Part shown: positions 15,673 through 42,741 of the stretch, in pieces
Layout of the letters: every line of letters begins with the position of its first letter
How positions within the stretch are numbered: the first letter of the stretch is position 1
The notes under the pieces: generated by a model
Seen by the model: the letters and a program-made list of their open reading frames with translations, nothing else
Database searches by the model: none
What the model was told of the DNA's origin: nothing
Origin: a virus
Reading direction: 5' to 3' (one strand)
IMG/VR virus record: IMGVR_UViG_3300006923_000018
Location: 1-64,000 of that record
Length of the DNA stretch: 64,000 bases
Translations under genes and position numbers: made by a program

Positions 15673-16317
15673 ATGGACGAGTGGCAAGATTACTGGTTAA
15701 GGATGGAGTCCCGTTCTTCAATTTTGGAGAGGGAGTGTCTTCAGAATATTCATCAGCTAGCAGAGTGGGCGGTTGAGAATACTCGCGGGGATGTGGTGAC
15801 GTGCAGTCCTGGCAATGCGACGAGCGCGTTAGTCATCGGAAATGCAATTCGCGCAAAGTGCCCTAAGTACTGGTTTTATGATACCAGGAATAATTTTAAT
15901 TACTACATTCCTGATTCTGATTATGGCGCTTATGTGTATTCCAAACTGCATAGTTGTGACCCTGACAAGATGGTTGATCTATTCAATTCATTAAACTTAG
16001 GCTTGCCTATATTCAGTAGTGTCTTGAACAGTTTTAATATGGAGATTGAGATTCCCAAATCAATTTCATTTCTGCATATTAATGCAAGCCTTAATGTGTT
16101 GGTAAAGCGATGTTTAGATCTCTTCTATGATAATGTTGAAGAGGGCGGAATAATCGTTTTAGATGATTTTGGCTGGTGGGAAGGATCTCGCCGCGCTTTT
16201 TACAGTTTTTGTTTTAGTCATGGCGAGTATCCGTTGTTGGAGAGGTGTGGATGTAGCCAAGTGTATTGGATAAAGGGTCGCACTCATAATCGCATTAGTG
16301 GTTATAAAATATTGTAA
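15673..16317 (+). CDS. TylF/MycF-like sugar O-methyltransferase homolog, degenerate
   Basis: ISFLHI...CLDLFYDNVEEGGIIVLDDFGWWEGSRRA matches the TylF C-terminus; several canonical residues are changed. Confidence 0.65.
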   Translation: MDEWQDYWLRMESRSSILERECLQNIHQLAEWAVENTRGDVVTCSPGNATSALVIGNAIRAKCPKYWFYDTRNNFNYYIPDSDYGAYVYSKLHSCDPDKMVDLFNSLNLGLPIFSSVLNSFNMEIEIPKSISFLHINASLNVLVKRCLDLFYDNVEEGGIIVLDDFGWWEGSRRAFYSFCFSHGEYPLLERCGCSQVYWIKGRTHNRISGYKIL

Positions 16318-25163: not shown

Positions 25164-28058
25164 ATGCTTGCTATGCGCGGCAAGATTGCGAATGATAAGA
25201 AGCATGATGCGTTAGTAGTTATCCCGACTATTGGCGTTCCCGAGCCCTTCCTTGGTTTTTATAAAAACTTTATTGATTCTCTTAGTCTTAAGGCAAAGAT
25301 TGTAATTTCTATAAACCCTGTAGAGAAGTCTCATGCGGACTTGTCTATTAAGTTAATCAATTCTGTTAATCTACCTGATGGATGCTCTTTGATTATTGAG
25401 CGTGCTGACGGCCCGATAGGTTTTGGTGCGGCTATAAATGCAGGTTTGATTAGAGGAATAAAAGAGGGCGGCCTTCCCAAGTATGTCATTACGGTGAATG
25501 ATGATCTAGTGCTCGCCTCTGGCTGGGACACTGGATTGATTCGCGGTCTTGAGGCAAAGTCCTTTTGCTCTCCTGTTGAGCTTCCTGATTCAGACACCCT
25601 CCTGCGTACCAAGTACGATATTTCTCATATCAATAAGATTGGTCTTGTAGGTCCAGTTACAGATTACGCTGGAGGGATGCAGCAAGTTATAAACAGGAAA
25701 GACCTGGGCTCTAAGAGTTATGCGGACTTTGCTAAGGAGTGGTCCGAGACTCCATTTAATAAAAATGTTCTGATGAGCACTAATCTTGTAGTTGGCCTGT
25801 GTTGCGGGATGAAGCGTGCTTTTATTAAAGACATGCTTTTAGACAACGGCGAATCCTACATTGGTATTTACGATGAGGATTCATTTCCTATCGGCGGGTA
25901 CGAAGACAATGATCTTTGTGTGCGTGCTTCATTAGCTGGGTGGGGAGTTGGCCTTGCGTGGGATGTTTTTGTTGGGCACCTGGGCTCACAAACTTTGAAT
26001 CGATACTTTCCAGATCATCTTCGAGGACGCAAGAATCAGTCGAATTATTACGAGAAGTGGAAAGATATAACTTACAGAAAAGCTAAAAATAAGCTTGTAA
26101 GTGTTTACCGGATAAAGATTTCAACAGTAAACGATCTAATGATGTTGAAGCAAAGCCTGTTGCGCCATTCAGAGATTGTGGACGGTCACGCGATCCTTCT
26201 CACGAATAATCCATTAGATATTATTGATGCTGCTGATTGGGCCGCTTCTGGTGCATCTCTTGATGCTAGAGATCATCAGTTGCTTCATGATTCCAGTAAT
26301 AAGGGTGCCCCTGGTGTTGCCAAGGCATTCAGGTCTTGGGTTCTCGACATTACCAATCAAGATCCCGAGGTCAAAGTTGAGGTATGGCAAAAAGGGTTTA
26401 ATGAGCGGGATGAGCGGAACAGAGCCATCGATATTGCAGAATCCATGAGTCCAGACTGGTGCATATCTATCGATCATGACGAGATTCTAGAAGACCGAAT
26501 TACTAGAGGACACCTTGAACGGTATATGCGTCATCCTGACCCGCTGGTCTCAACTTGGGAACTGGGATGGCTGAACCATTGGGATAGTCCACGTATGTGC
26601 CGCATAGACGGTCCCTGGGGAGACAAGGGGGAGTTCAGAGGGGGGATGCGGGGGTCTAGGCTGTGGCGCGTTCTGAACGGGCAAGAATCGCGAATTCTAA
26701 GCGGGGGTGAAGATGGTCTTCATTGTGGGAATATTCCTCCCTTCTTTCCATCATCTGTTCGCAAGTCCGGTGCGCGATTTAGGCACTTTGGATATTTGAA
26801 GGCAGAAGATCGGTTTAGAAAATATCAGTTTTATCGCAAGCTAGATCCCAATCCCTCCATTTCTGAAGTCGGCGCCCACGATTATAGCCATCTAATTAAT
26901 GAAGAAAAAATGATGATGCGTGTCTACAATCCAACAAACGGTATTGGGCTCCATATGCTAGTATATGAGAAAGAGGAGCCCACCAATATCGCGGCACTCC
27001 TCAACGAGTTGCACGGGATGATGGACCAGATTGTACTGGTGTGGACTGGAGAATGGAATGATGAGGACAAATTTTGGTCTGTTGCTGGGCTCGACGCCCC
27101 ATCCATAGAGGCATGGCCCGCAACGGGACCAAGCCGGGAGTTGGCTCATTACGCGCAAGCACATAACGCTGCCATTATTCATCATCCTCTCGAAAATAAT
27201 ATCGCGCAAGCACGGAATGCTGGCATCAATTACTTAAATCAATTTCATAAAAATGGACTCGGATGGGCTTTATTTCTAGATCCCGATGAGACCTTTTTAG
27301 ATATGCACGATACTGTTACAGCTATGCGCGAGATGGCCCTATCTACTGATGCGTGGGGGTGGCTCTTTAAGTATAGAAATCTTCTACCGGGTGGCGGATC
27401 TTCATCTTCTGAAAGTGTACGCATGGTCAAGCTGGATTCAGCCAAGATTATGCAGATGAACGGAAGAGTTCATGAATCATTTGGGCATTCAATTAAGCGT
27501 CTTCAAGATCTGGGCATTCACCCATCCTTCCAATACGCGCCGTTCTATTCAATCAATGATGGATTAAATCGGACACCAGAACAGAACGCGGCAAAGGTAA
27601 ATCTTTATCGTGGTCTACTGATTGAGGAGCTTGAAGCTAATCCGCTTCAGCCTGGTCCGTGGGTTTCACTGGGACTGCAATACAATAATGACGGAAACCC
27701 CGAAATGGCTAAAGAGTGTTACGAGCGAGCGGTCATTTGCGCCGGGACCAGCTTTTTGCCATTTATGGAGTTGGCACTTTATCATCTTCGTGTTGGGAAA
27801 TCATTACTGAAAGAGGTAGTAACTCGCACAGTAAGTCATCACGATGCCCACAATATTGCTGTGAAGGGCATTGAGATTTTAGACAAGCTGGCCCCAGGGC
27901 AACCCTATATAGAAACTGGTGGCCCTATTGCAAAGGATGCGCTGCTTCCTGATTTTCCATTCAGTGAGTTGATCGATAATATCGAAGAGTCTCAAAACAA
28001 CTCGATAAACGAGAGCGAATCCTTTACCATAGAGGAAGGGGCCGGGCTCCGCGTATGA
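25164..28058 (+). CDS. multidomain glycosyltransferase (three GT2/GT-A domains + TPR)
   Basis: Domain 1: VVIPT, GFGAAINAG, NDD, GGYEDNDLC. Domain 2: ERDERN, WCISIDHDE, HFGY. Domain 3: AQARNAG, WALFLDPDE, GRVHE. TPR-like helices near the C-terminus. Confidence 0.85.
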   Translation: MLAMRGKIANDKKHDALVVIPTIGVPEPFLGFYKNFIDSLSLKAKIVISINPVEKSHADLSIKLINSVNLPDGCSLIIERADGPIGFGAAINAGLIRGIKEGGLPKYVITVNDDLVLASGWDTGLIRGLEAKSFCSPVELPDSDTLLRTKYDISHINKIGLVGPVTDYAGGMQQVINRKDLGSKSYADFAKEWSETPFNKNVLMSTNLVVGLCCGMKRAFIKDMLLDNGESYIGIYDEDSFPIGGYEDNDLCVRASLAGWGVGLAWDVFVGHLGSQTLNRYFPDHLRGRKNQSNYYEKWKDITYRKAKNKLVSVYRIKISTVNDLMMLKQSLLRHSEIVDGHAILLTNNPLDIIDAADWAASGASLDARDHQLLHDSSNKGAPGVAKAFRSWVLDITNQDPEVKVEVWQKGFNERDERNRAIDIAESMSPDWCISIDHDEILEDRITRGHLERYMRHPDPLVSTWELGWLNHWDSPRMCRIDGPWGDKGEFRGGMRGSRLWRVLNGQESRILSGGEDGLHCGNIPPFFPSSVRKSGARFRHFGYLKAEDRFRKYQFYRKLDPNPSISEVGAHDYSHLINEEKMMMRVYNPTNGIGLHMLVYEKEEPTNIAALLNELHGMMDQIVLVWTGEWNDEDKFWSVAGLDAPSIEAWPATGPSRELAHYAQAHNAAIIHHPLENNIAQARNAGINYLNQFHKNGLGWALFLDPDETFLDMHDTVTAMREMALSTDAWGWLFKYRNLLPGGGSSSSESVRMVKLDSAKIMQMNGRVHESFGHSIKRLQDLGIHPSFQYAPFYSINDGLNRTPEQNAAKVNLYRGLLIEELEANPLQPGPWVSLGLQYNNDGNPEMAKECYERAVICAGTSFLPFMELALYHLRVGKSLLKEVVTRTVSHHDAHNIAVKGIEILDKLAPGQPYIETGGPIAKDALLPDFPFSELIDNIEESQNNSINESESFTIEEGAGLRV

Positions 28059-31119: not shown

Positions 31120-34100
31120 ATGGCTAAGGCGAACTTAGGCGAGCTTTTAATTAAGATCGGCGTCGATACTAAGAAACTCGATGCCGGTCTTACTGATGCT
31201 GGTAACAGTTTAAAAAGGTTTGGTGTAAGTTCTAGGGCTATTTCTGCTGGTGTTACCGCAGCTTTCGCGGGTATGACGCTCGCAGTGGCGGCGTTCGGGA
31301 AGGCTACTACAGAGGTTGGTGCTGGATTTGAGCAATCAATGGCAACAGTGGGTGCTGTTGCTGGTTCAACAGAGGCTCAGCTTGGCCTCATGGAGACCAG
31401 GGCTCGTGAAGTTGGTCGAAGCACTTTATTTACTGCTCGCCAGAGCGCAGATGCGATGGTTGAGTTTGCTCGCGCAGGCTTTAAGGCTGGTGAAATCATC
31501 TCGGCCACTGAGCCAGCCATTAACCTGGCTGGTGCAACTGCGGCTAATCTGACTAGTGCTGTAAAGGGAGTAGCGGCGGCGCTAAAGGTATTTCAACTCG
31601 ACGCTGGTGAGGCTGCTCGTGTAGCAGATGTTTTTGCTGTAGCCACTCAGAATTCATTGTTTGATTTGCAGGGTTTAATTGATGCTATGAAGTATGGCGG
31701 TCCCGCTGCCGCTGCGTTTGGTCTAAGTATTGAGCAGGGAACTGCCTATATGATGGTCCTGCGAAACTTGGGTTTAGAGGCGAGTCAGGCTGGTGTATAT
31801 CTTCGTCAGATTTTAACTAGCGCGGCCAACTTAACACCAAAGGCTGCTAAGATATTTTCTGCGGTTGGTATATCTGCTGAGGAACTTGACCCAACCATTA
31901 ATCATCTTGACGATATTATTAGAAGACTTGGCGACACTACTGAGCTGAGTGGTAAAAAGATTCAATCTGCGTTTGGAACTCGTGGTGGTCCGATTGTTGC
32001 AGCCCTGGTTAAGCAATATCGTACACTTGGAGAGGAAGGGCTCCATTTCCTTAAGTTTCAAGAACAACTGGCTGAATCCGCAGGCGAAGCGGAAAAGATG
32101 TATATCCGGCAGATTGATACTGTAATTGGCCAGTTTACTATTGCGAAGTCAGCAATGGAAGACTTGTTCATTGCGATGTTCTTTGGATTTAATTTAGAGC
32201 TAAAAGATCTCGGGACTGCATTTGCGGAGCTATTTAACGCAATCCGAATTGAACTTAGTTCGAGTGGTTTCAGTGACTTCGGTGAGCCAATTAACGACTT
32301 CGCTGCCATCCTGAGAAACAACAAAGAGGGAATTGCGAAAGCATTTGTTGGCTTTGCTGAGGCCATTGCTGGTGTCGGAAACGCCCTAAATACGCTATTG
32401 CTTGTACTCCCGCTGGTACTTTTTGTATTTAATAATTTCAAAGGACTGCTCTATGGTCTGGCTACTGGTGGTTTCGTCCTGGCTACTAGCTGGGTAGTTC
32501 AGTTCGCTGGTGGACTCGCGACAACAGGAATTGTTTACGGGCGGTTCACGGGTGCGGTCGCCTACGCAACGGTTGCTCTGGGCGAATTCACAGCAGCGCT
32601 GGCCTTGTCAACGGGCGCTGTGCTGGGGATAGCGGCTGCTATTGGGGTGGTTGTTTACGCGCTATTCCGGTGGAAAACAGCAGAAGAAGATCTCGCAGCC
32701 ATTAGAAATAAGAAAAAGGCACAGAGATACGCTGAGCTTCAGCATCTTACAGATCTGAGGCAGTCTACTGATGCAATGGTCCTCTCTTTAATTGATCGTG
32801 CAGTTAAAGAGAAAACCCTCTCTGAAGAATTAAAGATTCAACTGAGACAGCTTAGCGTCTTAAATCGAAAGCAAATTGAAACGGGATTGGCAGCAGGAAC
32901 TCTGTTTGAAACTTCAGAAAATGCTGTCATGTCTTTGGCTGCTGCCTTTGAGATGCAAAAACAAGGGATGACGGGTGCTGATCGCTATCTTCGTGATGCA
33001 GAAAAGCATCGGCGCGGGTCACTAAAAAGTGCAGCAGACCTAAAGGCTGAAAACGCGACATTAGTTCAGCAGTATGACGCCATTATCAAAAAGCATGAAG
33101 GTACAGCGCTTGCGCAAGCTGCGGTTCGTAAAGAGGCAAGCACGCTTTTTGGTGAAGAGGTAAATAGCACTGAAGATGTCATTCGTGTATATGATAAGCG
33201 CGAAGAAAAGGTGGAGGAATTAATTGGAGGCGCCAACAGGCTCTATGAGGCGCTTAAGATGGGAAAGATAGCTCATGGGTTATCTCTTCATAGTAAATTA
33301 ATCTCCAATATTACTGGAAAAACAGCAAAGCAAGCAAAGGAAGAGAAAAATCTAGCAAATGCAATACTTAAGCGACTAGAGTTTGAGCTTAAGCTGATGC
33401 GGGAGATTGAGAATCTTCGAACCAGGGGCGCAACTACTAGGAAAAACGATTTAGCGGCCAGTATAGAGGCGGCGGAAAAACTATATGCTGCCGAAATAGC
33501 GGCTGCGCTGGAGATGGGCTTAGAAATTGCTGCCATAGAGTCAGATCTGGTAGAAACTATAAGCAATCTTAAGCTTAGATCTCGTCTTGAAACCATTAAT
33601 AAGCTGAAAGATATTGAAGAGGACGCGATTAAAAAAACGCGTTCAATGAGGGAGATGACTCAGGCTGAAGAGCTTCATTCAGAGTATCTCACGGCAGAAG
33701 CAAACTTAGATAGAATTTATCAGTTAGAAGTTGACGCTAATAATTGGAGTTGGGAACTTGCTAAGACATTTGAGGATGCAAAGCTTGCTCTTCAAAGAGA
33801 AGCAATCGCAAAAGCTGAAGAGATACGGCGTAATGACGAAAAGAAGCGTCTTGCTGATATTGAGCGAATCACTACAGAAATAAGCACTAGAGATTTAAAA
33901 GAATCAGAGCGTTTAGCATCTGAAAAGGCTCAGATTTTATCTCAGCTTAAAAGGGACGAGGTAGGCAAGCGGGAAGTTATAGAATCTGATTATGATTATA
34001 GAATTCGGCAGGCCCGAAAGGAGGAACGCCGAAATATAATAGAGTTTATTAATTGGAGAATAAGAAGAGGGCGGGAAGGTGTTAAGCGGATGCTTAATGC

Positions 34101-35649
34101 GGCGAAGGGCAAGGTTGCTCCTTTTATTATAGCTTTATTTGGCAGGGATAAAGAGTCTGATAAATACATGAAGCGTCAGGCTGGAAAAGCCTGGAAAGAA
34201 GCCCTAAAGCTTCAAAGGAAAATGGATCGTCAGGCAACAATAAATGAGCGCCGGAAAAGTAAGGGTAAGCCGGAAAAGGAGTTTGGACGTTTAAAAGAGT
34301 CCGCAAAAGAGGCGGCACAAGGGATTGCACAGATAATGGGTGCGACCTTGGGCGCTGTTGGCGCGGGTGCGGTGAAGGCTGTTGGGATGATGAAGTCTAT
34401 AGCAGGGGCTTTTTCTTCTGTTGTAAGCAAGTTTTCTGGATTCTCATTTAGTCCAGCAGCTATGGCGCAGGAGCTTGCTGCGGCTAAGGCGGCTGCCGAC
34501 GAAGAGGGTGCTGGGTTTAGCTATGCTAAAGAGGCTCGCAAGTATGTAGACGGCCTTGTTGATCAGGCAATTGGCTTTGCAGACGGTTTGGCTAAGGGTC
34601 TTGGTCCTGCACTTGAGCAGATAGCCGAACGTCTACCTGATTTATTAGATGCGATTATTGCAGCAATTCCGAAAGTGGTTCAGGCGATTGTAGATGTACT
34701 GCCTGGGCTTATTATGACCATCATTAACAAGCTTCCCGAGTTATTTTCAGCTTTGGTTAATGGATTAGTTGATGTTGCCTTAGCTCTATTTGATGCTTTA
34801 CCGGAGATGTTGACGCAGTTCCTTAGTGTTGCTCTGCCTGACATGATTACAACTCTTCTAGCAGCAATTCCTAAGATCATTGATGGATTTGTTAAGGCTC
34901 TCCCTGATATTCTTACAGCTATTATTGATTCTATTCCGATAATCATAGAAGCAATTATCATGGGTTTGCCCGATATAGTTATTTCTATAATTAAAGCTAT
35001 TCCAATCATTGTGATTGAACTTATAAAGGCAATCCCAAGGCTAATAGTTGCTATTGTTTGGGGGATACTTAAGGCATTAGGCGCGGTAGTTGGTGAGCTA
35101 GGCAAGATTATTGCAGAGGCTTTTGTTGGCGTGTTTAATTTCTTTAAGGATTGGATGGGGAGTCTCAAGGAGACGTTTAAGGGTGATCCCGAGAAAAGTA
35201 AGTCCCACAAGATTTGGACAACTATAGGAGACATTTTTACTTTAGGGGGTGTATCACGGTGGAAAAAGAATAAGGCGGAAGCATACGAGGAGCTTGGCCG
35301 AGAAATGCCCACTGGCGGGAATGCCTACTCTGGAATCAATTATGTCCCAGCGAATATGCGGGTAAATGTTCATAAGGGTGAAGCCATTATCCCTGCAAGC
35401 CGCAATGCTCAGGGGGATAAAGGGGGCATGAACCGTGCCGCGCCAGCCTCTTACGGAGGGGGTCCGGGTGGCGGCGGCATGGGTCAGCCTATAGATATTG
35501 CAATTATGGCAGAGGGTCGTCTTCTGGACGCGGTTCAGATCACTGCTATGCGTCGTGGTCATGCCCCTGAAATCAAAAGTGAGCTACGTCGCGCATCAGG
35601 TGTGACTGTTGGATTTAATCGTGGATCTTTCGACTATTGGACTAAGTAA
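31120..35649 (+). CDS. tape measure protein (TP901-like)
   Basis: 1509 aa, Ala-rich and helical; FEQSM..V.AV..FTA.Q.ADAM N-terminal domain; TM region; ~11-residue repeats; VHKGEAIIP. Confidence 0.95.
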   Translation: MAKANLGELLIKIGVDTKKLDAGLTDAGNSLKRFGVSSRAISAGVTAAFAGMTLAVAAFGKATTEVGAGFEQSMATVGAVAGSTEAQLGLMETRAREVGRSTLFTARQSADAMVEFARAGFKAGEIISATEPAINLAGATAANLTSAVKGVAAALKVFQLDAGEAARVADVFAVATQNSLFDLQGLIDAMKYGGPAAAAFGLSIEQGTAYMMVLRNLGLEASQAGVYLRQILTSAANLTPKAAKIFSAVGISAEELDPTINHLDDIIRRLGDTTELSGKKIQSAFGTRGGPIVAALVKQYRTLGEEGLHFLKFQEQLAESAGEAEKMYIRQIDTVIGQFTIAKSAMEDLFIAMFFGFNLELKDLGTAFAELFNAIRIELSSSGFSDFGEPINDFAAILRNNKEGIAKAFVGFAEAIAGVGNALNTLLLVLPLVLFVFNNFKGLLYGLATGGFVLATSWVVQFAGGLATTGIVYGRFTGAVAYATVALGEFTAALALSTGAVLGIAAAIGVVVYALFRWKTAEEDLAAIRNKKKAQRYAELQHLTDLRQSTDAMVLSLIDRAVKEKTLSEELKIQLRQLSVLNRKQIETGLAAGTLFETSENAVMSLAAAFEMQKQGMTGADRYLRDAEKHRRGSLKSAADLKAENATLVQQYDAIIKKHEGTALAQAAVRKEASTLFGEEVNSTEDVIRVYDKREEKVEELIGGANRLYEALKMGKIAHGLSLHSKLISNITGKTAKQAKEEKNLANAILKRLEFELKLMREIENLRTRGATTRKNDLAASIEAAEKLYAAEIAAALEMGLEIAAIESDLVETISNLKLRSRLETINKLKDIEEDAIKKTRSMREMTQAEELHSEYLTAEANLDRIYQLEVDANNWSWELAKTFEDAKLALQREAIAKAEEIRRNDEKKRLADIERITTEISTRDLKESERLASEKAQILSQLKRDEVGKREVIESDYDYRIRQARKEERRNIIEFINWRIRRGREGVKRMLNAAKGKVAPFIIALFGRDKESDKYMKRQAGKAWKEALKLQRKMDRQATINERRKSKGKPEKEFGRLKESAKEAAQGIAQIMGATLGAVGAGAVKAVGMMKSIAGAFSSVVSKFSGFSFSPAAMAQELAAAKAAADEEGAGFSYAKEARKYVDGLVDQAIGFADGLAKGLGPALEQIAERLPDLLDAIIAAIPKVVQAIVDVLPGLIMTIINKLPELFSALVNGLVDVALALFDALPEMLTQFLSVALPDMITTLLAAIPKIIDGFVKALPDILTAIIDSIPIIIEAIIMGLPDIVISIIKAIPIIVIELIKAIPRLIVAIVWGILKALGAVVGELGKIIAEAFVGVFNFFKDWMGSLKETFKGDPEKSKSHKIWTTIGDIFTLGGVSRWKKNKAEAYEELGREMPTGGNAYSGINYVPANMRVNVHKGEAIIPASRNAQGDKGGMNRAAPASYGGGPGGGGMGQPIDIAIMAEGRLLDAVQITAMRRGHAPEIKSELRRASGVTVGFNRGSFDYWTK

Positions 35650-38600
35650 TGGGTGGACCTAATTCCTATATCATATTTCCCGAAACAGTATTAACTGGGG
35701 AAAATAATGTTGTAAGTGTTCAACCGAACACTGATGGTGAGTACCCTGGCCAGGGTTCAGCAGATTTAAACAATACGGGATCTCTAACAGTTGTCCAAAC
35801 TGGAACTTATAAGGAAGGAGTTTCAACTTCAGCCAAAAAAACAAATTACCGAGTTTGTGATGCCGGTAGTAATTTTGCTGGTGCAACCTACGGCTGGAAG
35901 CCTTCCACGGACCTAGTTTCTCTTGGTGATGGCGCCTTTTTAGTAGATAGTACGAATGCCTTGGCTGCTGGAGATCTAATTCTCAACAGGATTAGCATTG
36001 GAGATTCTAATAAGTTTGATATCCTAAGCGTAGATTCTAACGATCAATCAGCACTATCCAAATCTATTGCAATTAACTTAAAGAAAGACCTCCACGGCAT
36101 TACTGCTACTGGCGCTACCGTCTGGGCACCGTGGGCAAATGTTGGGGCTGGCACAGTAGGGTCTGGTGATATTTTAATCAATGATGTAGATATACGTGCT
36201 GGAAGCGACATTGTTGTAACTGCAAATGACGGGACAGGAACTTTAGAGGCTGCAATTAATGCAAAGACATGGAAAACTGGGGTGACTGGAGATCTGGCTG
36301 CTGGGACGATGAGGTTGACCAGCGGTGGTTGCAATATCAAGCTTGAGCTAAGTGATAGTGGCGCTACGATTTTAAATGGTCTTGGTGGGGCTGTTTCCCT
36401 AACTCAGTTTGGATATATTACTCTGACGCACGAAACTCATATAGAGATTCGTGGGGCCAATCCTGTCTATATAGGATCTGTATTTGCTGACGGCTATTAC
36501 CAGACCCGTGAATGGTATGGCTATGATGACATGCGGTATTTTTATGCTGAGCATGGTGGAATGCTGACCAAGCCAGGATACGGAGCATGTTCAGTCTTCT
36601 GCAAGTTAGCGATGAGGGAACTTCTATATGTTGCTGAGGCAGCGCCAGGCGAGGGCGAGACAACATCAACTCTTAGAATTTCTTATCATGATGTTCGTTC
36701 TGAGTATGATGATTGGACCAGCACAACAGTAGAGCTTGATAAGGAGTTTGCCACTGGCTTTGGAGATCATAGAGCCGCCTTGCAGGTATGCGCTATGAGG
36801 GACGGGTCTCTGAGGCTACTGACTCAGCAGAATGGCCGTGATTGGGTTTTATGGCATTCTACAGATGGTCTTGTTTGGAATAGAATAAACGACAATATTC
36901 TGAGACGATTTACCACAGATTTAATGCAGGCTTCTCTTTGGCCCAGAATGGATGCCAGTGGTGATTTTCTTAGAATTGCCTGGATGGATTACACGTCAAC
37001 CGGCACTGGAAGTCATGAAGCTCTTACCTATTATCTAAGAACCATTGTTTCGTCGGATGGCGGGGCGTCGTTTACTGAGCCTACCTTTTCACTATCTCCC
37101 TATACAATCAGCGAAGACGGTAAGGGTTCTGATTATTTCATTTGGACAATGGCTGCGCTAGGTGATGAATCTGGGACATTTTATCTACATTTTTCAACTG
37201 GAAGTCTTACACGAAATTTCTATGCTAGGCGTTTAGACGGGTGGGCCGACACGACAATTTTCTTCGCCAATGCTGCTTGGAACACTACTACGCAGGGCGC
37301 ACATCTCGGCGCTGTGCGTGGGCCTGATTATTACTATGTATTCTTTCAGTTTCGTCAGCCCAGCGGAAACCCAAGCGCCGCTTGGATTGCGGAGGGGGCG
37401 AGTATGACGGTTTATGAGATAGATCCCTCTGAACCATTAAGCAGTACAAGTTGGCGCCGGTTGGGGATTAGTGGTCAATGGGATGGGACTTGTAAGTTTC
37501 AGCCAGCCCTCATCAGCTTGGTAAACTGCGGTGACTATATTTCTATGTTTGGTGCTCTAGTAGATAATGATACGGATGCTGCTACACTAGAAGCTGACAA
37601 TACTTGTTATTTAAGATTTGGAAAATGGGATAAGAAACCTATCAAGGAAACTTATCCAGAGTCATTTCAGACCTCGGCCATTGAAGACCTTGTTACCTTG
37701 ACCCATCAGCCGACTCGCACACTGTATCGTTTAAGCTGGAATGCCGCATTTGGGGCACCTGCGCCTGCATCTAATGCAAGTGCTTCATCCGATACTACTT
37801 GGACCAGAGATCGTCATCAGACAACCCAAAGCTGGAATGCGTGGAGATTTAAGCTTGAAGACCAAGCGACTGTAGGCAACTACGGCATCTATACCTTTAG
37901 CGACACTGCTAATTTGACTACTCACAATGCTCCAATATGGGGGGTTACTCCATCTATAGCTAACATAGCTGGAAGCTGTATTGAATGTGAAATGAGAATT
38001 GAACAGATTGAGGAGGGAATACATACAACTGAGATAGTTTTCTTTGGCGTGAAATCGTTTTATGGCACAACTTCAACCTCAACAAGACAGTTAGAGATCG
38101 CACTTTACTTTCATCAAAATGGGTTTGTTGTTTGGGATAAAATTTCAGATTCGTTGGCCACAACCGGAGTGACTGGTTTAGACATGACTGAATTTCATCT
38201 ATTCAGAATGGTGTTCAGGCCAAATCCAGGCACGGACAGTAGTAGATGTCAGATTTGGTATAAACAAATAGGGGATTTTGGAGAAAACGAGTGGGGACAC
38301 ACCCCTGTTTTTACCCCTACCCTTAATTCAGGCCCCGAATCATTTTCTCAGTCTATTCATTTTGGGCACGGCAATGTATCATATGGTAGTACAAAACGAA
38401 TATCACAATGGCGACGGATTGCGGTGCTTGATTATACCGATTGCAATCAGCTTGAAGATGATGATGTCCGATGGCCTGATGAGATGCGAGGCCACCTTGT
38501 AACTCAGAATCCGGTTCTAATTGATAATCATGCGTCTGCTCGCTGGGGCGGCGGCGGCGGAATGGATAATGATTATTTTACAGCCGAAGCTGATAGCAAT

Positions 38601-39677
38601 TATGCAGTTTCTAATGTATTTATTGACTCTCCAAGGATAGAGTGGCGAAGCGAATCTCATGGCGTTGATGAGTTGACTGACGGGCAAATTGTTTTAGTTG
38701 CAGATCCCAATGACGAATTCGCTCGAATTCGCTTTGAGGGAATCGCCTTCTTCAACACCAATTTTCTTAGCACGTTCATCGAATGGTCTGATGACGGAAC
38801 CACATGGGCCTCGGTGGAAGATGCCATTGACACCCCTTTAATAAGTGCTACGATTTATTCTATTGGTGAAAAGTTTTTTATTTTAGATCTTCCGTCTCAA
38901 GGCAAACCCATAATTGGGCAGATGCAGACTAATCAAAATAATACTTACTATCTGCAATTTAAGTCAACTGTAGATGAAACGACTAAATTTTATACTGTAA
39001 AGATTAACAAGCTCGATTATATTGATGGTGACAAGTTTTCTGTATATCTGGATACGGACAAGAACCTAAAAGCATACTTCGGTGATGAGCTTGGTGCTCC
39101 AGTTACGATTCACAGTAATCAATGGGCTTACCGCGCTACTGCTTCTGGTTCGTTTCAGCCTCAAATGTACGGAGTTAGATACCTCCGTTTTACTACCACT
39201 GGAAGTTATCCAAGCGCTGAAGGATATTGGAAAGTTGGCCGGATTGTGCTGGGTCCAGTATTAGATTTGGGTGTTCCCTTAGAGTGGACGCTTGAGAATA
39301 ATCAGCAGCCAAATGTGACAAAGTATCGAACCCGGAGCGCTATTCAGTGGGCCTTTGTGGAGGGTCCGCCACAAAGAACAATCAAAGGTCGCATTGTTGG
39401 TGATGTGAAAGAACAAGAGCGCATGAAGCTACGTTACAGTCTTCAGAAGTATTCAGAATACGAAAAGAAGTCATGCGTTTTAGTCAAAGACAGCACCTCG
39501 TACTATGGTAGTGAATCTGACAGCAATTATACTCGTCAAAACTGCAACCCAGACAATGTAATTCTTGGCAGGATTGCTAATGGAAGTCCACTGGATCAAA
39601 TTGCCTGGTATCAGGATGTGGATGGCATCTGGAAGCAGGCGGGTGACGTTGAAATAGAGTTTACGGAGGAGGTCTGA
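35649..39677 (+). CDS. large tail-tip protein with flagellin-D2-like insert and Asp-box (BNR) repeats
   Basis: Follows tape measure; Asp boxes STDGLVW, SSDGGASF, SDDGTTW; GD..IN..I...AINA...TGVT module. Confidence 0.75.
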   Translation: MGGPNSYIIFPETVLTGENNVVSVQPNTDGEYPGQGSADLNNTGSLTVVQTGTYKEGVSTSAKKTNYRVCDAGSNFAGATYGWKPSTDLVSLGDGAFLVDSTNALAAGDLILNRISIGDSNKFDILSVDSNDQSALSKSIAINLKKDLHGITATGATVWAPWANVGAGTVGSGDILINDVDIRAGSDIVVTANDGTGTLEAAINAKTWKTGVTGDLAAGTMRLTSGGCNIKLELSDSGATILNGLGGAVSLTQFGYITLTHETHIEIRGANPVYIGSVFADGYYQTREWYGYDDMRYFYAEHGGMLTKPGYGACSVFCKLAMRELLYVAEAAPGEGETTSTLRISYHDVRSEYDDWTSTTVELDKEFATGFGDHRAALQVCAMRDGSLRLLTQQNGRDWVLWHSTDGLVWNRINDNILRRFTTDLMQASLWPRMDASGDFLRIAWMDYTSTGTGSHEALTYYLRTIVSSDGGASFTEPTFSLSPYTISEDGKGSDYFIWTMAALGDESGTFYLHFSTGSLTRNFYARRLDGWADTTIFFANAAWNTTTQGAHLGAVRGPDYYYVFFQFRQPSGNPSAAWIAEGASMTVYEIDPSEPLSSTSWRRLGISGQWDGTCKFQPALISLVNCGDYISMFGALVDNDTDAATLEADNTCYLRFGKWDKKPIKETYPESFQTSAIEDLVTLTHQPTRTLYRLSWNAAFGAPAPASNASASSDTTWTRDRHQTTQSWNAWRFKLEDQATVGNYGIYTFSDTANLTTHNAPIWGVTPSIANIAGSCIECEMRIEQIEEGIHTTEIVFFGVKSFYGTTSTSTRQLEIALYFHQNGFVVWDKISDSLATTGVTGLDMTEFHLFRMVFRPNPGTDSSRCQIWYKQIGDFGENEWGHTPVFTPTLNSGPESFSQSIHFGHGNVSYGSTKRISQWRRIAVLDYTDCNQLEDDDVRWPDEMRGHLVTQNPVLIDNHASARWGGGGGMDNDYFTAEADSNYAVSNVFIDSPRIEWRSESHGVDELTDGQIVLVADPNDEFARIRFEGIAFFNTNFLSTFIEWSDDGTTWASVEDAIDTPLISATIYSIGEKFFILDLPSQGKPIIGQMQTNQNNTYYLQFKSTVDETTKFYTVKINKLDYIDGDKFSVYLDTDKNLKAYFGDELGAPVTIHSNQWAYRATASGSFQPQMYGVRYLRFTTTGSYPSAEGYWKVGRIVLGPVLDLGVPLEWTLENNQQPNVTKYRTRSAIQWAFVEGPPQRTIKGRIVGDVKEQERMKLRYSLQKYSEYEKKSCVLVKDSTSYYGSESDSNYTRQNCNPDNVILGRIANGSPLDQIAWYQDVDGIWKQAGDVEIEFTEEV

Positions 39678-42322
39678 TGCCGATTGGGGGTCCAGACTGG
39701 GATGCTCTTGCGTATCGATTTTGGGCAATTGAGGAATTCCGTGAGTTAACAAGTGGTCCGAGGGGAAAGCTTAACGAGCATTGGACTGATCAGATTCGCA
39801 AAGATCCACTTCTCTTGGGAATGCACATGTGTATCGACATGGTTTTCGGTGGTGGTCAACGATTACGTGTATCGACAGATCCCATCACCGCCTATCGCCG
39901 TACTCCAGCTTCTGGTCCTGTCACTGAAATAGTGTACGAGCCCATTTTAATGCAACAGCCAAGAGTCAATCAGCAGTATTCCCTTGGTACTGGATCTTCT
40001 TCTGCTCGTAGTTTCGCAATCTCTTTTGCTGAGAATAATATGAATCCCTATTCAATTATTTCTGAAGGGAGATTCATTGCAGGGTGGGCTGAGGTTTCAT
40101 TACTCATAGGCAATCAAGATTGGGAACTTAGATATGTTTTGATGCTTGGAGACATGAGCGGTGGCGTCACATTTGGTGCCGTAGATGAGATCATAGAAAC
40201 AGAAATTGTAGATCCCCTAGAGACTAGCGACTTATTAATTACTCCTTATACAGTTCAGGCTAATACAGCATTATCAGCTACTTGGTCTGCCCTGTCTACT
40301 GTAATGGCGGGCACTGTCATAGCAGATGACATCAAAATTAACGGGACTGATATTCATACAGGTTCAAATATAGTTGTAACTGCTGGTGACGGTACTGGAA
40401 CATTGGCTGTGGCTATCAATGCCCTTTCTTCTACTACTTCTGTTACCAGCGTTGCTACAAATGGACTCATGACGCTCACGGCTAGAGGTGGTGGGGAAAT
40501 AGATCCCCAAGTCAAACTTGAGTTTACCTCTAATGGAGGACTCATCTTAAATGGCGTGCCTGGGGCTGGCTCCATCACTCAGGCTGGCTCCACTACAGTT
40601 CCAGAGAGTTACGTTGGTTATCGTTATCCTCTTGTTTTCAACAGCCCAGTTAATGTTCCAGCTATTCGTCTATCTGCTGCAACTCCCCCTTATTTTCTAT
40701 GCTGGTTCGCCTCTGATGTTACGCCTTCTACCGTAAATGTTGATGGAGTAGATTATGGCTCAGCCAATCGTTATTATCCATATACCTTTTCTAAGGTGAA
40801 TGACGGAACTGGCGCTAACTATTGGAAAGTAGAATTTTCAACTGGTGATGCGGTTTGGGAGGCTGAGGCGCCTGTAAATGGAGGAATGACGATTTTCCCA
40901 GGAGATATTGTAATAGAGGGGGTTGACATTATGTCGGCTAATCCGAACTTTATTCTTCAGGCTAATGCAAATGGAACAAACATTCTAAATGGGACTTCTG
41001 ACCCAATTCTTGTAAATTCCACCTCATCAGGATGGGTTGCTGCTGATAATGTAAATGCAGGAGTATTAAATCCTGGTGATATTACTGTTCGTGGAGTAGA
41101 TCTCGTAGACAGCGGCTCGGTCAGTGTTCAAGTTGATGATAACTCATCAACTCTTATTGCTGAATTTGCTGAGAGGTATACGGAAACCGGAGTTATAGCG
41201 TTTCATGTGGCACACGGAAGCGGTTACAGAATTCGCCTTCAGTTTGAAGGGGAAGAGGAAAGTGGAATTCAAGATGATGACATAGGGGGACTTCTCCGTT
41301 CACTCATCAATAATGTGTATAACAAAACTGGAGTTATGGCCACCATAACTGGGGGTAAAATCAGTCTTACCAAAACCAACAATACTGATATTGATTTAGT
41401 TACGACTGCGAGGGGCGGCTATATATTAAATGGCGTATGGGGAGAGGTTAAGGCAACAACTCTTGGCGGATGGTCAGACAACACCAGTGTTTTTGTAAGT
41501 GGTTCTCGGGACGGTGGTGCTCCTGATGAGAATATCATTAAAGTTATTAAGCGTTTATGTACCAACTGGAGCACATTGGGCCATCATGGGATTAGCGATA
41601 ATCTCTTTGCTATTGCTGAGTCCAAAATACCTAACATCGCCAAACCAGCAGTCATTGTAAATGGCTCAGGGGGCGCCGATTCCGCCTCTGCGATAGAGTA
41701 TATTGAATCTACGTTATGCGCCAGTTTCCCTATGGTATCAATGGCATGGGGAAACGGTGGCTATGGTCCTGTAGTTACAGATCGAACACGAGGAGGAATT
41801 CGTATGCGATTGGTAGCGGGTCAGGCTCCGTTATTAGATAGATCTACAGCCATTAAGGAAACAGCAAAATCGTCATTAAGTAATCAATTTACGCTTCGCT
41901 ATAATTTTGATCCCGTAACAAATACGCATAATAGTTATGCGTCTAGGGACAGGAACAACAGCACCCTGTGCAGGATTAGCCAGGAGCAGGCAGGATTACG
42001 AGAGCGTGCGGTTATTGATTCTCCTCTTATTTATAGTTCGATTGTGGCTGATTATGTTTTAGACTGGCTTGTAGATCATTTTGCTCTTCCCTCATACTAT
42101 GTTGAGTACGATTGTTTCCAGCCTTTATTTATTACTTTAAACCTTGGTGATAACATCACAATAACTGATTCAGATATTTCTGATTCAGAGATCACAGCTA
42201 CAGTTGAAAAATTAGAGCTAGAGGGTGGCCGGTGTCGAATTGGTGTCCGGTTATGGCTCCTCTACGATAAGCTGGGCGGCGCCGCCGCAGGGATGGCTGG
42301 TTCTCAGTCTGGGAGCATTTAA
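39677..42322 (+). CDS. tail-tip / hub protein with flagellin-D2-like inserts
   Basis: C-terminal LNLGDNITITD OB-like hub signature; inserts homologous to the one in the preceding gene. Confidence 0.7.
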   Translation: MPIGGPDWDALAYRFWAIEEFRELTSGPRGKLNEHWTDQIRKDPLLLGMHMCIDMVFGGGQRLRVSTDPITAYRRTPASGPVTEIVYEPILMQQPRVNQQYSLGTGSSSARSFAISFAENNMNPYSIISEGRFIAGWAEVSLLIGNQDWELRYVLMLGDMSGGVTFGAVDEIIETEIVDPLETSDLLITPYTVQANTALSATWSALSTVMAGTVIADDIKINGTDIHTGSNIVVTAGDGTGTLAVAINALSSTTSVTSVATNGLMTLTARGGGEIDPQVKLEFTSNGGLILNGVPGAGSITQAGSTTVPESYVGYRYPLVFNSPVNVPAIRLSAATPPYFLCWFASDVTPSTVNVDGVDYGSANRYYPYTFSKVNDGTGANYWKVEFSTGDAVWEAEAPVNGGMTIFPGDIVIEGVDIMSANPNFILQANANGTNILNGTSDPILVNSTSSGWVAADNVNAGVLNPGDITVRGVDLVDSGSVSVQVDDNSSTLIAEFAERYTETGVIAFHVAHGSGYRIRLQFEGEEESGIQDDDIGGLLRSLINNVYNKTGVMATITGGKISLTKTNNTDIDLVTTARGGYILNGVWGEVKATTLGGWSDNTSVFVSGSRDGGAPDENIIKVIKRLCTNWSTLGHHGISDNLFAIAESKIPNIAKPAVIVNGSGGADSASAIEYIESTLCASFPMVSMAWGNGGYGPVVTDRTRGGIRMRLVAGQAPLLDRSTAIKETAKSSLSNQFTLRYNFDPVTNTHNSYASRDRNNSTLCRISQEQAGLRERAVIDSPLIYSSIVADYVLDWLVDHFALPSYYVEYDCFQPLFITLNLGDNITITDSDISDSEITATVEKLELEGGRCRIGVRLWLLYDKLGGAAAGMAGSQSGSI

Positions 42323-42741
42323 TGAGTTTGTTTAGTTACGATCGAAATCAGGCGTCCGCTTTGGACTTGAACACTTTTTCAAATACGATAAAAAGCACAA
42401 TTATTTCAAGTATTCCTGATGAGAAGCTATCTGGAAATGGATTAAGTTTTTCAACAATGGAAATGGCTGACATTGAGGAGGATTTCCAAGCCGGATCTGT
42501 ATCGGATATACCTGACTTAATGCTTGGCTGGAAGGCCAAGATAATGCAACTTGGTACAACTTATTGCCAGGTGGCCAAGTGGGAGGGCCGTACAATCTTA
42601 TTTGTATGGGATTTAGCTATTGTTTCTAATGTTGATGGTCGTCCCCATCTTGAATCGTATGGTGATTTATTAGCTACGATTACATTGACGCATCCTGATG
42701 GAAAAGAGATTTTAGAATATACTGTAAGCGTAGAGGTTTAG
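42322..42741 (+). CDS. hypothetical protein
   Basis: 139 aa; translationally coupled. Confidence 0.65.
   Translation: MSLFSYDRNQASALDLNTFSNTIKSTIISSIPDEKLSGNGLSFSTMEMADIEEDFQAGSVSDIPDLMLGWKAKIMQLGTTYCQVAKWEGRTILFVWDLAIVSNVDGRPHLESYGDLLATITLTHPDGKEILEYTVSVEV

Follow-up and report, generated by a model that had tools for sequence, protein, structure and literature searches.

The outer domains of flagellin, D2 and D3, are not needed for polymerisation; they are exposed and variable, and they often take part in surface contacts. Accessory domains are also found at phage tail tips, where the "evolved" distal tail proteins (Dits) of lactococcal and Lactobacillus siphophages contain inserted carbohydrate-binding modules that are thought to aid adsorption. 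Temperate phages with TldR regulators encode whole flagellins, and flagellin expression is regulated in them (bioRxiv 10.1101/2025.07.22.666180). In such phages a complete flagellin gene reportedly remodels the host flagellum. At the level of fold, the β-domain of the Sphingomonas sp. A1 flagellin p5 resembles the finger domain of T4 gp11 (PMC9751261; 2ZBI, 3K8V). Here, we analyzed a stretch of 64,000 nucleotides (the window), comprising the first 64 kb of IMGVR_UViG_3300006923_000018, a 76,280-bp IMG/VR virus record rated complete by CheckV. Directly behind the tape measure gene lies the gene for a protein of 1342 amino acids (aa), here p1 (35649..39677), which carries near its N-terminus a double module homologous to the variable region of flagellin and marked by two Ile-Asn (IN) motifs. 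The next protein, p2, carries further IN units. Coordinates refer to the window, and all features described lie on the + strand.

The original prediction had placed a flagellin-like domain at 35940-36480, corresponding to p1 aa 98-277, and the motifs it quoted are all present there in the translation of 35649-39677. The segment ALAAGDLILNRISIG occupies aa 104-118, SALSKSIAIN closes on an Ile-Asn pair at aa 142-143, and GDILINDVDI spans aa 173-182. A second central Ile-Asn pair, at aa 203-204 within EAAINAK, is followed by MRLTSGGCNI and GYITLTHETHIEIRG. Ile-Asn pairs are likewise present in p2, at aa 247-248 and 544-545. The Pfam Flagellin_IN model (PF07196), which is only 55 residues long, scored 15.4 bits on p1 (aa 177-226) and 16.0 bits on p2, both under the gathering cut-off of 22.7; P0002, a homologue with 58% identity, exceeded that cut-off with 25.2 bits.

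Longer queries gave a clearer result. Using phmmer with p1 aa 85-290 against 1.84 billion representative proteins, we obtained 48 matches at E≤1e-3. A Pfam scan of the 47 other matches detected Flagellin_IN in 42, and since Flagellin_N was present in 31 and Flagellin_C in 30, most of them are ordinary flagellins, about 470 aa long and aligned over their central residues ~180-355. A profile built from the central-region rows of flagellins, with all phage sequences excluded (the flagellin-only profile), matched p1 at E=8.7e-40 over aa ~64-286, and p1 and p2 were its sole matches among all open reading frames (ORFs) of at least 60 aa in the 76-kb genome. BLASTP aligned p1 with an 881-aa flagellin-family protein at 36% identity across 183 residues. 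In the alignment with flagellins, p1 is in register at both IN motifs, along the TGVTA strands and in the closing strand, and in the module alignment A2 query residue N59 is nearly invariant, while N120 forms an invariant column. A phmmer search of the p1 domain against PDB sequences returned no match. These comparisons confirm that the p1 module is genuinely homologous to the variable region of flagellin, far beyond chance, with the double IN order that had been proposed.

The helical parts of flagellin are missing from both proteins. Neither the Pfam models Flagellin_N and Flagellin_C (PF00669, PF00700; D0/D1 helices), applied at E≤1, nor flagellin N and C probes matched p1 or p2. We therefore rejected p1 as a filament-forming flagellin, the D0/D1 helical regions being absent.

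Structure prediction pointed to the same origin. With the module alignment, AlphaFold modelled aa 85-290 with a mean predicted local distance difference test score (pLDDT) of 89.3 and a predicted template modelling (TM) score (pTM) of 0.84; a single-sequence prediction of p1 aa 1-344 gave a pLDDT of 29. The confidently modelled part, aa ~94-289 (35928..36515), superposes on flagellin D2/D3. The top Foldseek matches to the model were all flagellins, namely H. pylori FlaB and FlaA, C. jejuni FlaA, P. aeruginosa FliC and a Sphingomonas cell-surface flagellin; entries 8ERM, 8SUG and 6X80 were among those matched, and the P. aeruginosa FliC matches included a D2/D3 crystal structure. The predicted fold thus agrees with solved flagellin D2/D3 domains and supports the view that the module comprises an entire outer unit of two subdomains, corresponding to residues 174-381 of H. 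pylori FlaA. The suggestion that an entire outer domain had been captured is consistent with this model. A PDB profile search with A2 was set aside, as its matches fell mostly on flagellin D0/D1 helices and came from the full-length rows of that alignment. Three uncharacterised BFVD proteins from uncultured Caudovirales (A0A6J5T9Y4, A0A6J5KQ70 and A0A6J5NHT8) matched the model with a Foldseek probability of 0.96-0.99 and a TM score of about 0.3, and may carry related domains.

To place the module within p1, we aligned p1 with homologues from relatives recovered from IMG/VR and JGI metagenomes using the p1 core, and also an alignment of p1 homologues, as query. The homologues of loci L004, L005 (= P0006) and L088 are about 1470 aa long and contain the double module plus one extra unit. 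By contrast, those of L007 (1048 aa) and L089, together with P0051 (1213 aa), align to p1 only from aa 251-291 on, and the flagellin profile has no match in any of the three. These more distant homologues retain both the initial ~50 residues and the core. In a four-way alignment, P0051 shares the first ~55 residues and then resumes at p1 aa ~269, so the inserted piece is delimited as p1 aa ~53-268 (35805..36452), which is a gap in the IN-less homologues and contains the double IN module. The predicted range 35940-36480 falls almost entirely within it. The segment in front, p1 aa 1-52 (35649..35804), is conserved and aligns with P0051 aa 1-55. By this alignment the flagellin module is an insertion near the N-terminus of p1, as had been anticipated. 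A related-locus search of IMG/VR with p1 alone gave no match.

The remainder of the protein, the p1 core (aa ~269-1342; 36453..39677), is present with or without the module and, compared along its full extent, is 23-31% identical to L004, L005, L007 and P0051. Its Atlas feature matches were to BNR_2 / F5_F8_type_C clusters (0.84, under the trust level), P0002 gave a weak BNR_2 match, and the core contains three degenerate Asp-box-like motifs at aa 404, 468 and 1047. As a lead only, the core may combine a sialidase-like BNR propeller with sugar-binding domains and may be the real receptor-binding or depolymerase part.

The second protein, p2 (881 aa; 39677..42322), has homologues that come after p1 in L004-L007 and L089, and carries its own insert at aa ~190-597 (40244..41467), detected with the flagellin-only profile and absent in four of the five homologues recovered. 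The profile matched the whole protein at E=2.8e-24. Three clear single IN units were resolved, at aa ~197-287, 455-513 and 530-585, with stretches at i-E values of 7e-12, 4e-7 and 1e-8; a marginal stretch at aa ~392-432 (i-E 1.4) does not stand alone. The homologues in L004-L007 and L089 (583-605 aa) keep p2 aa 1-188 and 597-864, and have ~100 aa without an IN match in place of the ~400-aa insert. P0005, the closest homologue of p2 (61% identical), has two IN units. In L004:14410-16173, L007:12883-14700 and other homologues, an unrelated stretch of ~100 residues occupies the insert site, which resembles a permissive point for swaps, and other lineages may hold other domains there.

We consider it likely that p1 aa ~53-289 represent a flagellin D2/D3 module that was captured once and later duplicated, and that acts as an exposed accessory adhesion or decoration domain at the tail tip. 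The module would consist of two β-subdomains, each built around an IN motif, set between the conserved N-terminal segment of ~52 residues and the large p1 core. Because the D0/D1 helical parts, which serve polymerisation in flagellin, are absent, it could not build a filament. It would project from the protein body as in flagellin, here at the tail tip, and as a dispensable accessory domain could help the first contact with the host surface. The host flagellar filament or a surface glycan are candidate ligands, and the conserved, possibly sialidase-like core would do the essential work. We favour this reading because the module appears to be dispensable, being absent in relatives, varies in copy number, occurs in two proteins beside the tape measure and resembles the exposed domains of flagellin.

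Phylogenetic analysis bears on how the module was acquired. In an IQ-TREE analysis of 44 double modules (the 30 rows nearest p1 and 14 random rows, with seven long-branch rows excluded), the four phage modules fell on one side of a branch with support of 99/93, a split present in 97% of bootstrap trees. FastTree also placed the phage modules together among all 155 non-redundant rows (support 88). In the backbone, no flagellin was supported as sister to the phage modules, and the best genome matches, at 30-38% identity, came from Myxococcota/Bradymonadia, Zooshikella, Hahella, Oleiphilaceae, Nitrospirota, Undibacterium and others. Because there is no supported sister and the best matches are scattered over several phyla, the module gives no indication of the host. 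An assignment from the nearest flagellins, which the original prediction had hoped to draw from the taxonomy of top hits, was accordingly rejected, with identity at or below 38% and a backbone lacking resolution.

The single-unit tree points to duplication of IN units inside the phage lineage, because p2 unit 1 groups with p1 unit 2, to which it is 50% identical (p1 aa 152-259), and in L004/L005 the additional p1 unit falls with their own unit 2. A recent origin of the p1 and p2 units by duplication was rejected at the DNA level, where they are alike in short stretches only; the p1-p2 duplication is, on this comparison, old at the DNA level. In the proposed history, a single horizontal transfer would have brought the module from a flagellin gene into the ancestor of a small, uncultured group of long-tailed phages. 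The simplest series would run from no module, through capture into p1, to spread into p2; later duplications would have given p1 of L004/L005/L088 its one extra unit and p2 of this phage its three or four.

These data also bear on a more specific proposal, namely that the phage is flagellotropic and that its captured outer domains dock on the host filament through the contacts made by flagellin outer domains. In P. aeruginosa and Campylobacter-type flagellins, D2/D3 touch one another at the surface of the filament. It is precisely to this exposed part that the module is homologous, and several copies over two tail-tip proteins would provide avidity along a repetitive filament. However, with the nearest flagellins so distant and taxonomically scattered, no matching host flagellin can be named. 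Moreover, L007 and L089 have otherwise the same tail genes without the module, which is therefore not an essential receptor binder. We regard such docking as unlikely, and it is similarly doubtful that the phage exemplifies what would be a self-derived, like-binds-like receptor principle, one not described for flagellotropic phages.

The original prediction had further proposed that the module serves as a glycan acceptor. Many bacteria glycosylate the outer domains of their flagellins, and enzymes combining GT2 and TPR domains, such as Listeria GmaR, glycosylate flagellin. For mycobacteriophages, glycosylation of the virion by phage glycosyltransferases is reported. The virion gene block of this phage encodes a 964-aa protein with multiple GT2 domains and a C-terminal TPR (25164..28058; weak Pfam GT2 and TPR matches), which could O-glycosylate the module to give a sugar-coated tail tip. 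Atlas feature scores of 0.94-0.98, with the nearest clusters all viral GT2(+TPR), and structure comparison (TM 0.55-0.72, normalised by hit) identify it as an enzyme of phage type; a PDB profile search with the glycosyltransferase alignment gave TPR matches only, and a related-locus search of IMG/VR with the 964-aa protein alone gave no match. A TylF-like methyltransferase match at the cut-off (22.9 vs 23 bits) is a further point in favour. Nevertheless, homologues of the glycosyltransferase occur in every relative seen, not only in the IN-bearing L004 and L088 but also in L007 (31%) and L089 (37% identity), where neither p1 nor p2 contains an IN module, so that the enzyme does not track the module across the relatives. 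The enzyme would thus predate the module and have another target, and, given its presence in every relative seen, it probably modifies something that all phages of the group share, either in the virion or in the host. In addition, Ser/Thr content is barely raised in the inserts (19.4% vs 17.0% in p1 and 18.9% vs 15.4% in p2). Glycosylation of the module therefore received no specific support, and we consider it quite improbable.

It could also be argued that the module is a sturdy β-domain that binds no ligand and merely adds bulk or inter-subunit contacts. This seems very improbable to us, as the double module is kept with a confidently predicted fold in lineages that share only ~30% identity in p1. 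That units were repeatedly duplicated into a second tail-tip protein points to selection for more copies, which fits avidity binding better than an inert spacer.

Accessory adhesion or decoration by a captured outer domain remains our preferred explanation, and several points weigh against it. The description of p1 and p2 as tail-tip proteins derives from gene order, because neither matches a PHROG or a tail family: their sole Pfam match is Flagellin_IN, and p1 has no Pfam, PHROG or NCBIfam match to a distal-tail-protein or hub family. The exposed position of the module on the tail, and its binding of a ligand, are argued from analogy with flagellin. The single-unit tree comprises 101 columns and its support is weak. 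Finally, a flagellin-to-phage direction of transfer is likely from the distribution, the flagellins being very numerous and the phage contigs only about five, on a tree that is unrooted.

The gene order on which these assignments are based would fit a long-tailed phage. The virion gene block encodes a large terminase, a portal, a major head protein and a head-tail adaptor, and a 186-aa protein is a major-tail-protein candidate on weak evidence. The tape measure protein (1509 aa; 31120..35649) matches tape measure families of PHROG, with E-values as low as 1.8e-58. The slot occupied by p1, directly after it, is usually held by the distal tail protein, and p1 homologues follow the tape measure gene in L004, L007, L088 and L089 as well. 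Stop and start codons overlap between the tape measure gene and p1 (TAATG, 35647-35651), between p1 and p2 (TGATG, 39675-39679) and between p2 and the next ORF (TAATG, 42320-42324), which suggests translational coupling of the four genes as a single unit. The 214-aa ORF that gives the TylF (macrocin O-methyltransferase) match mentioned above (15673-16317) lies between the genes for terminase and portal and may encode a methyltransferase of the head module that acts on a sugar or a protein.

A tblastn search with p1 and with the eight-unit protein P0004 against 50,697 deposited phage genomes gave no match, and a motif-seeded scan of IMG/VR for the module retrieved the contigs of L004 and L005 only, all within this small lineage. 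P0004 itself (973 aa, from a 140,840-bp ENA contig) consists almost entirely of eight flagellin-type IN units without flagellin N or C helices, and may represent a further case in which the module serves outside flagella. In the literature on Flagellin_IN/PF07196 and phages, we found no relevant report beyond PMC9751261.

Compared with the IN-motif flagellins of known structure, H. pylori FlaA/FlaB (9YGU/9YH1), C. jejuni FlaA (6X80) and P. aeruginosa FliC (8ERM/8SUG), the phage protein has equivalent D2/D3 outer domains. It differs in that the D0/D1 helices are absent and the carrier is a 1342-aa tail protein, and also in detail, with GGCNI in p1 in place of DGRNI and a 3-residue insert after the second IN strand. 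The likeness of T4 gp11 to flagellin is one of fold only, without an IN motif and with Leu-Gln in place of Ile-Asn (PMC9751261), whereas p1 keeps the IN motifs and shows clear sequence homology to flagellin. Homology at the sequence level in a phage tail protein would thus be new, the fold likeness to T4 gp11 having already been published. As in the "evolved" Dits, an accessory domain is inserted, in some relatives only, into the protein encoded right after the tape measure; unlike in those proteins, the insert is of flagellin origin and not a known carbohydrate-binding module, p1 matches no Dit family, and its core is about 1050 aa. The phages with TldR regulators and the present phage both carry flagellin-derived sequence, but here only the outer domain is involved, fused into virion tail proteins.

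The locus would thereby offer a clean case of domain traffic between the bacterial motility organelle and the virion. As relatives carry the module in zero, one or two proteins, they form a natural series suited to a comparison of adsorption, and if the module does bind flagella or is glycosylated, it would represent a new phage reuse of host surface parts. Modular accessory domains on tail tips are well known; one with clear sequence homology to the hypervariable, exposed part of flagellin is not.
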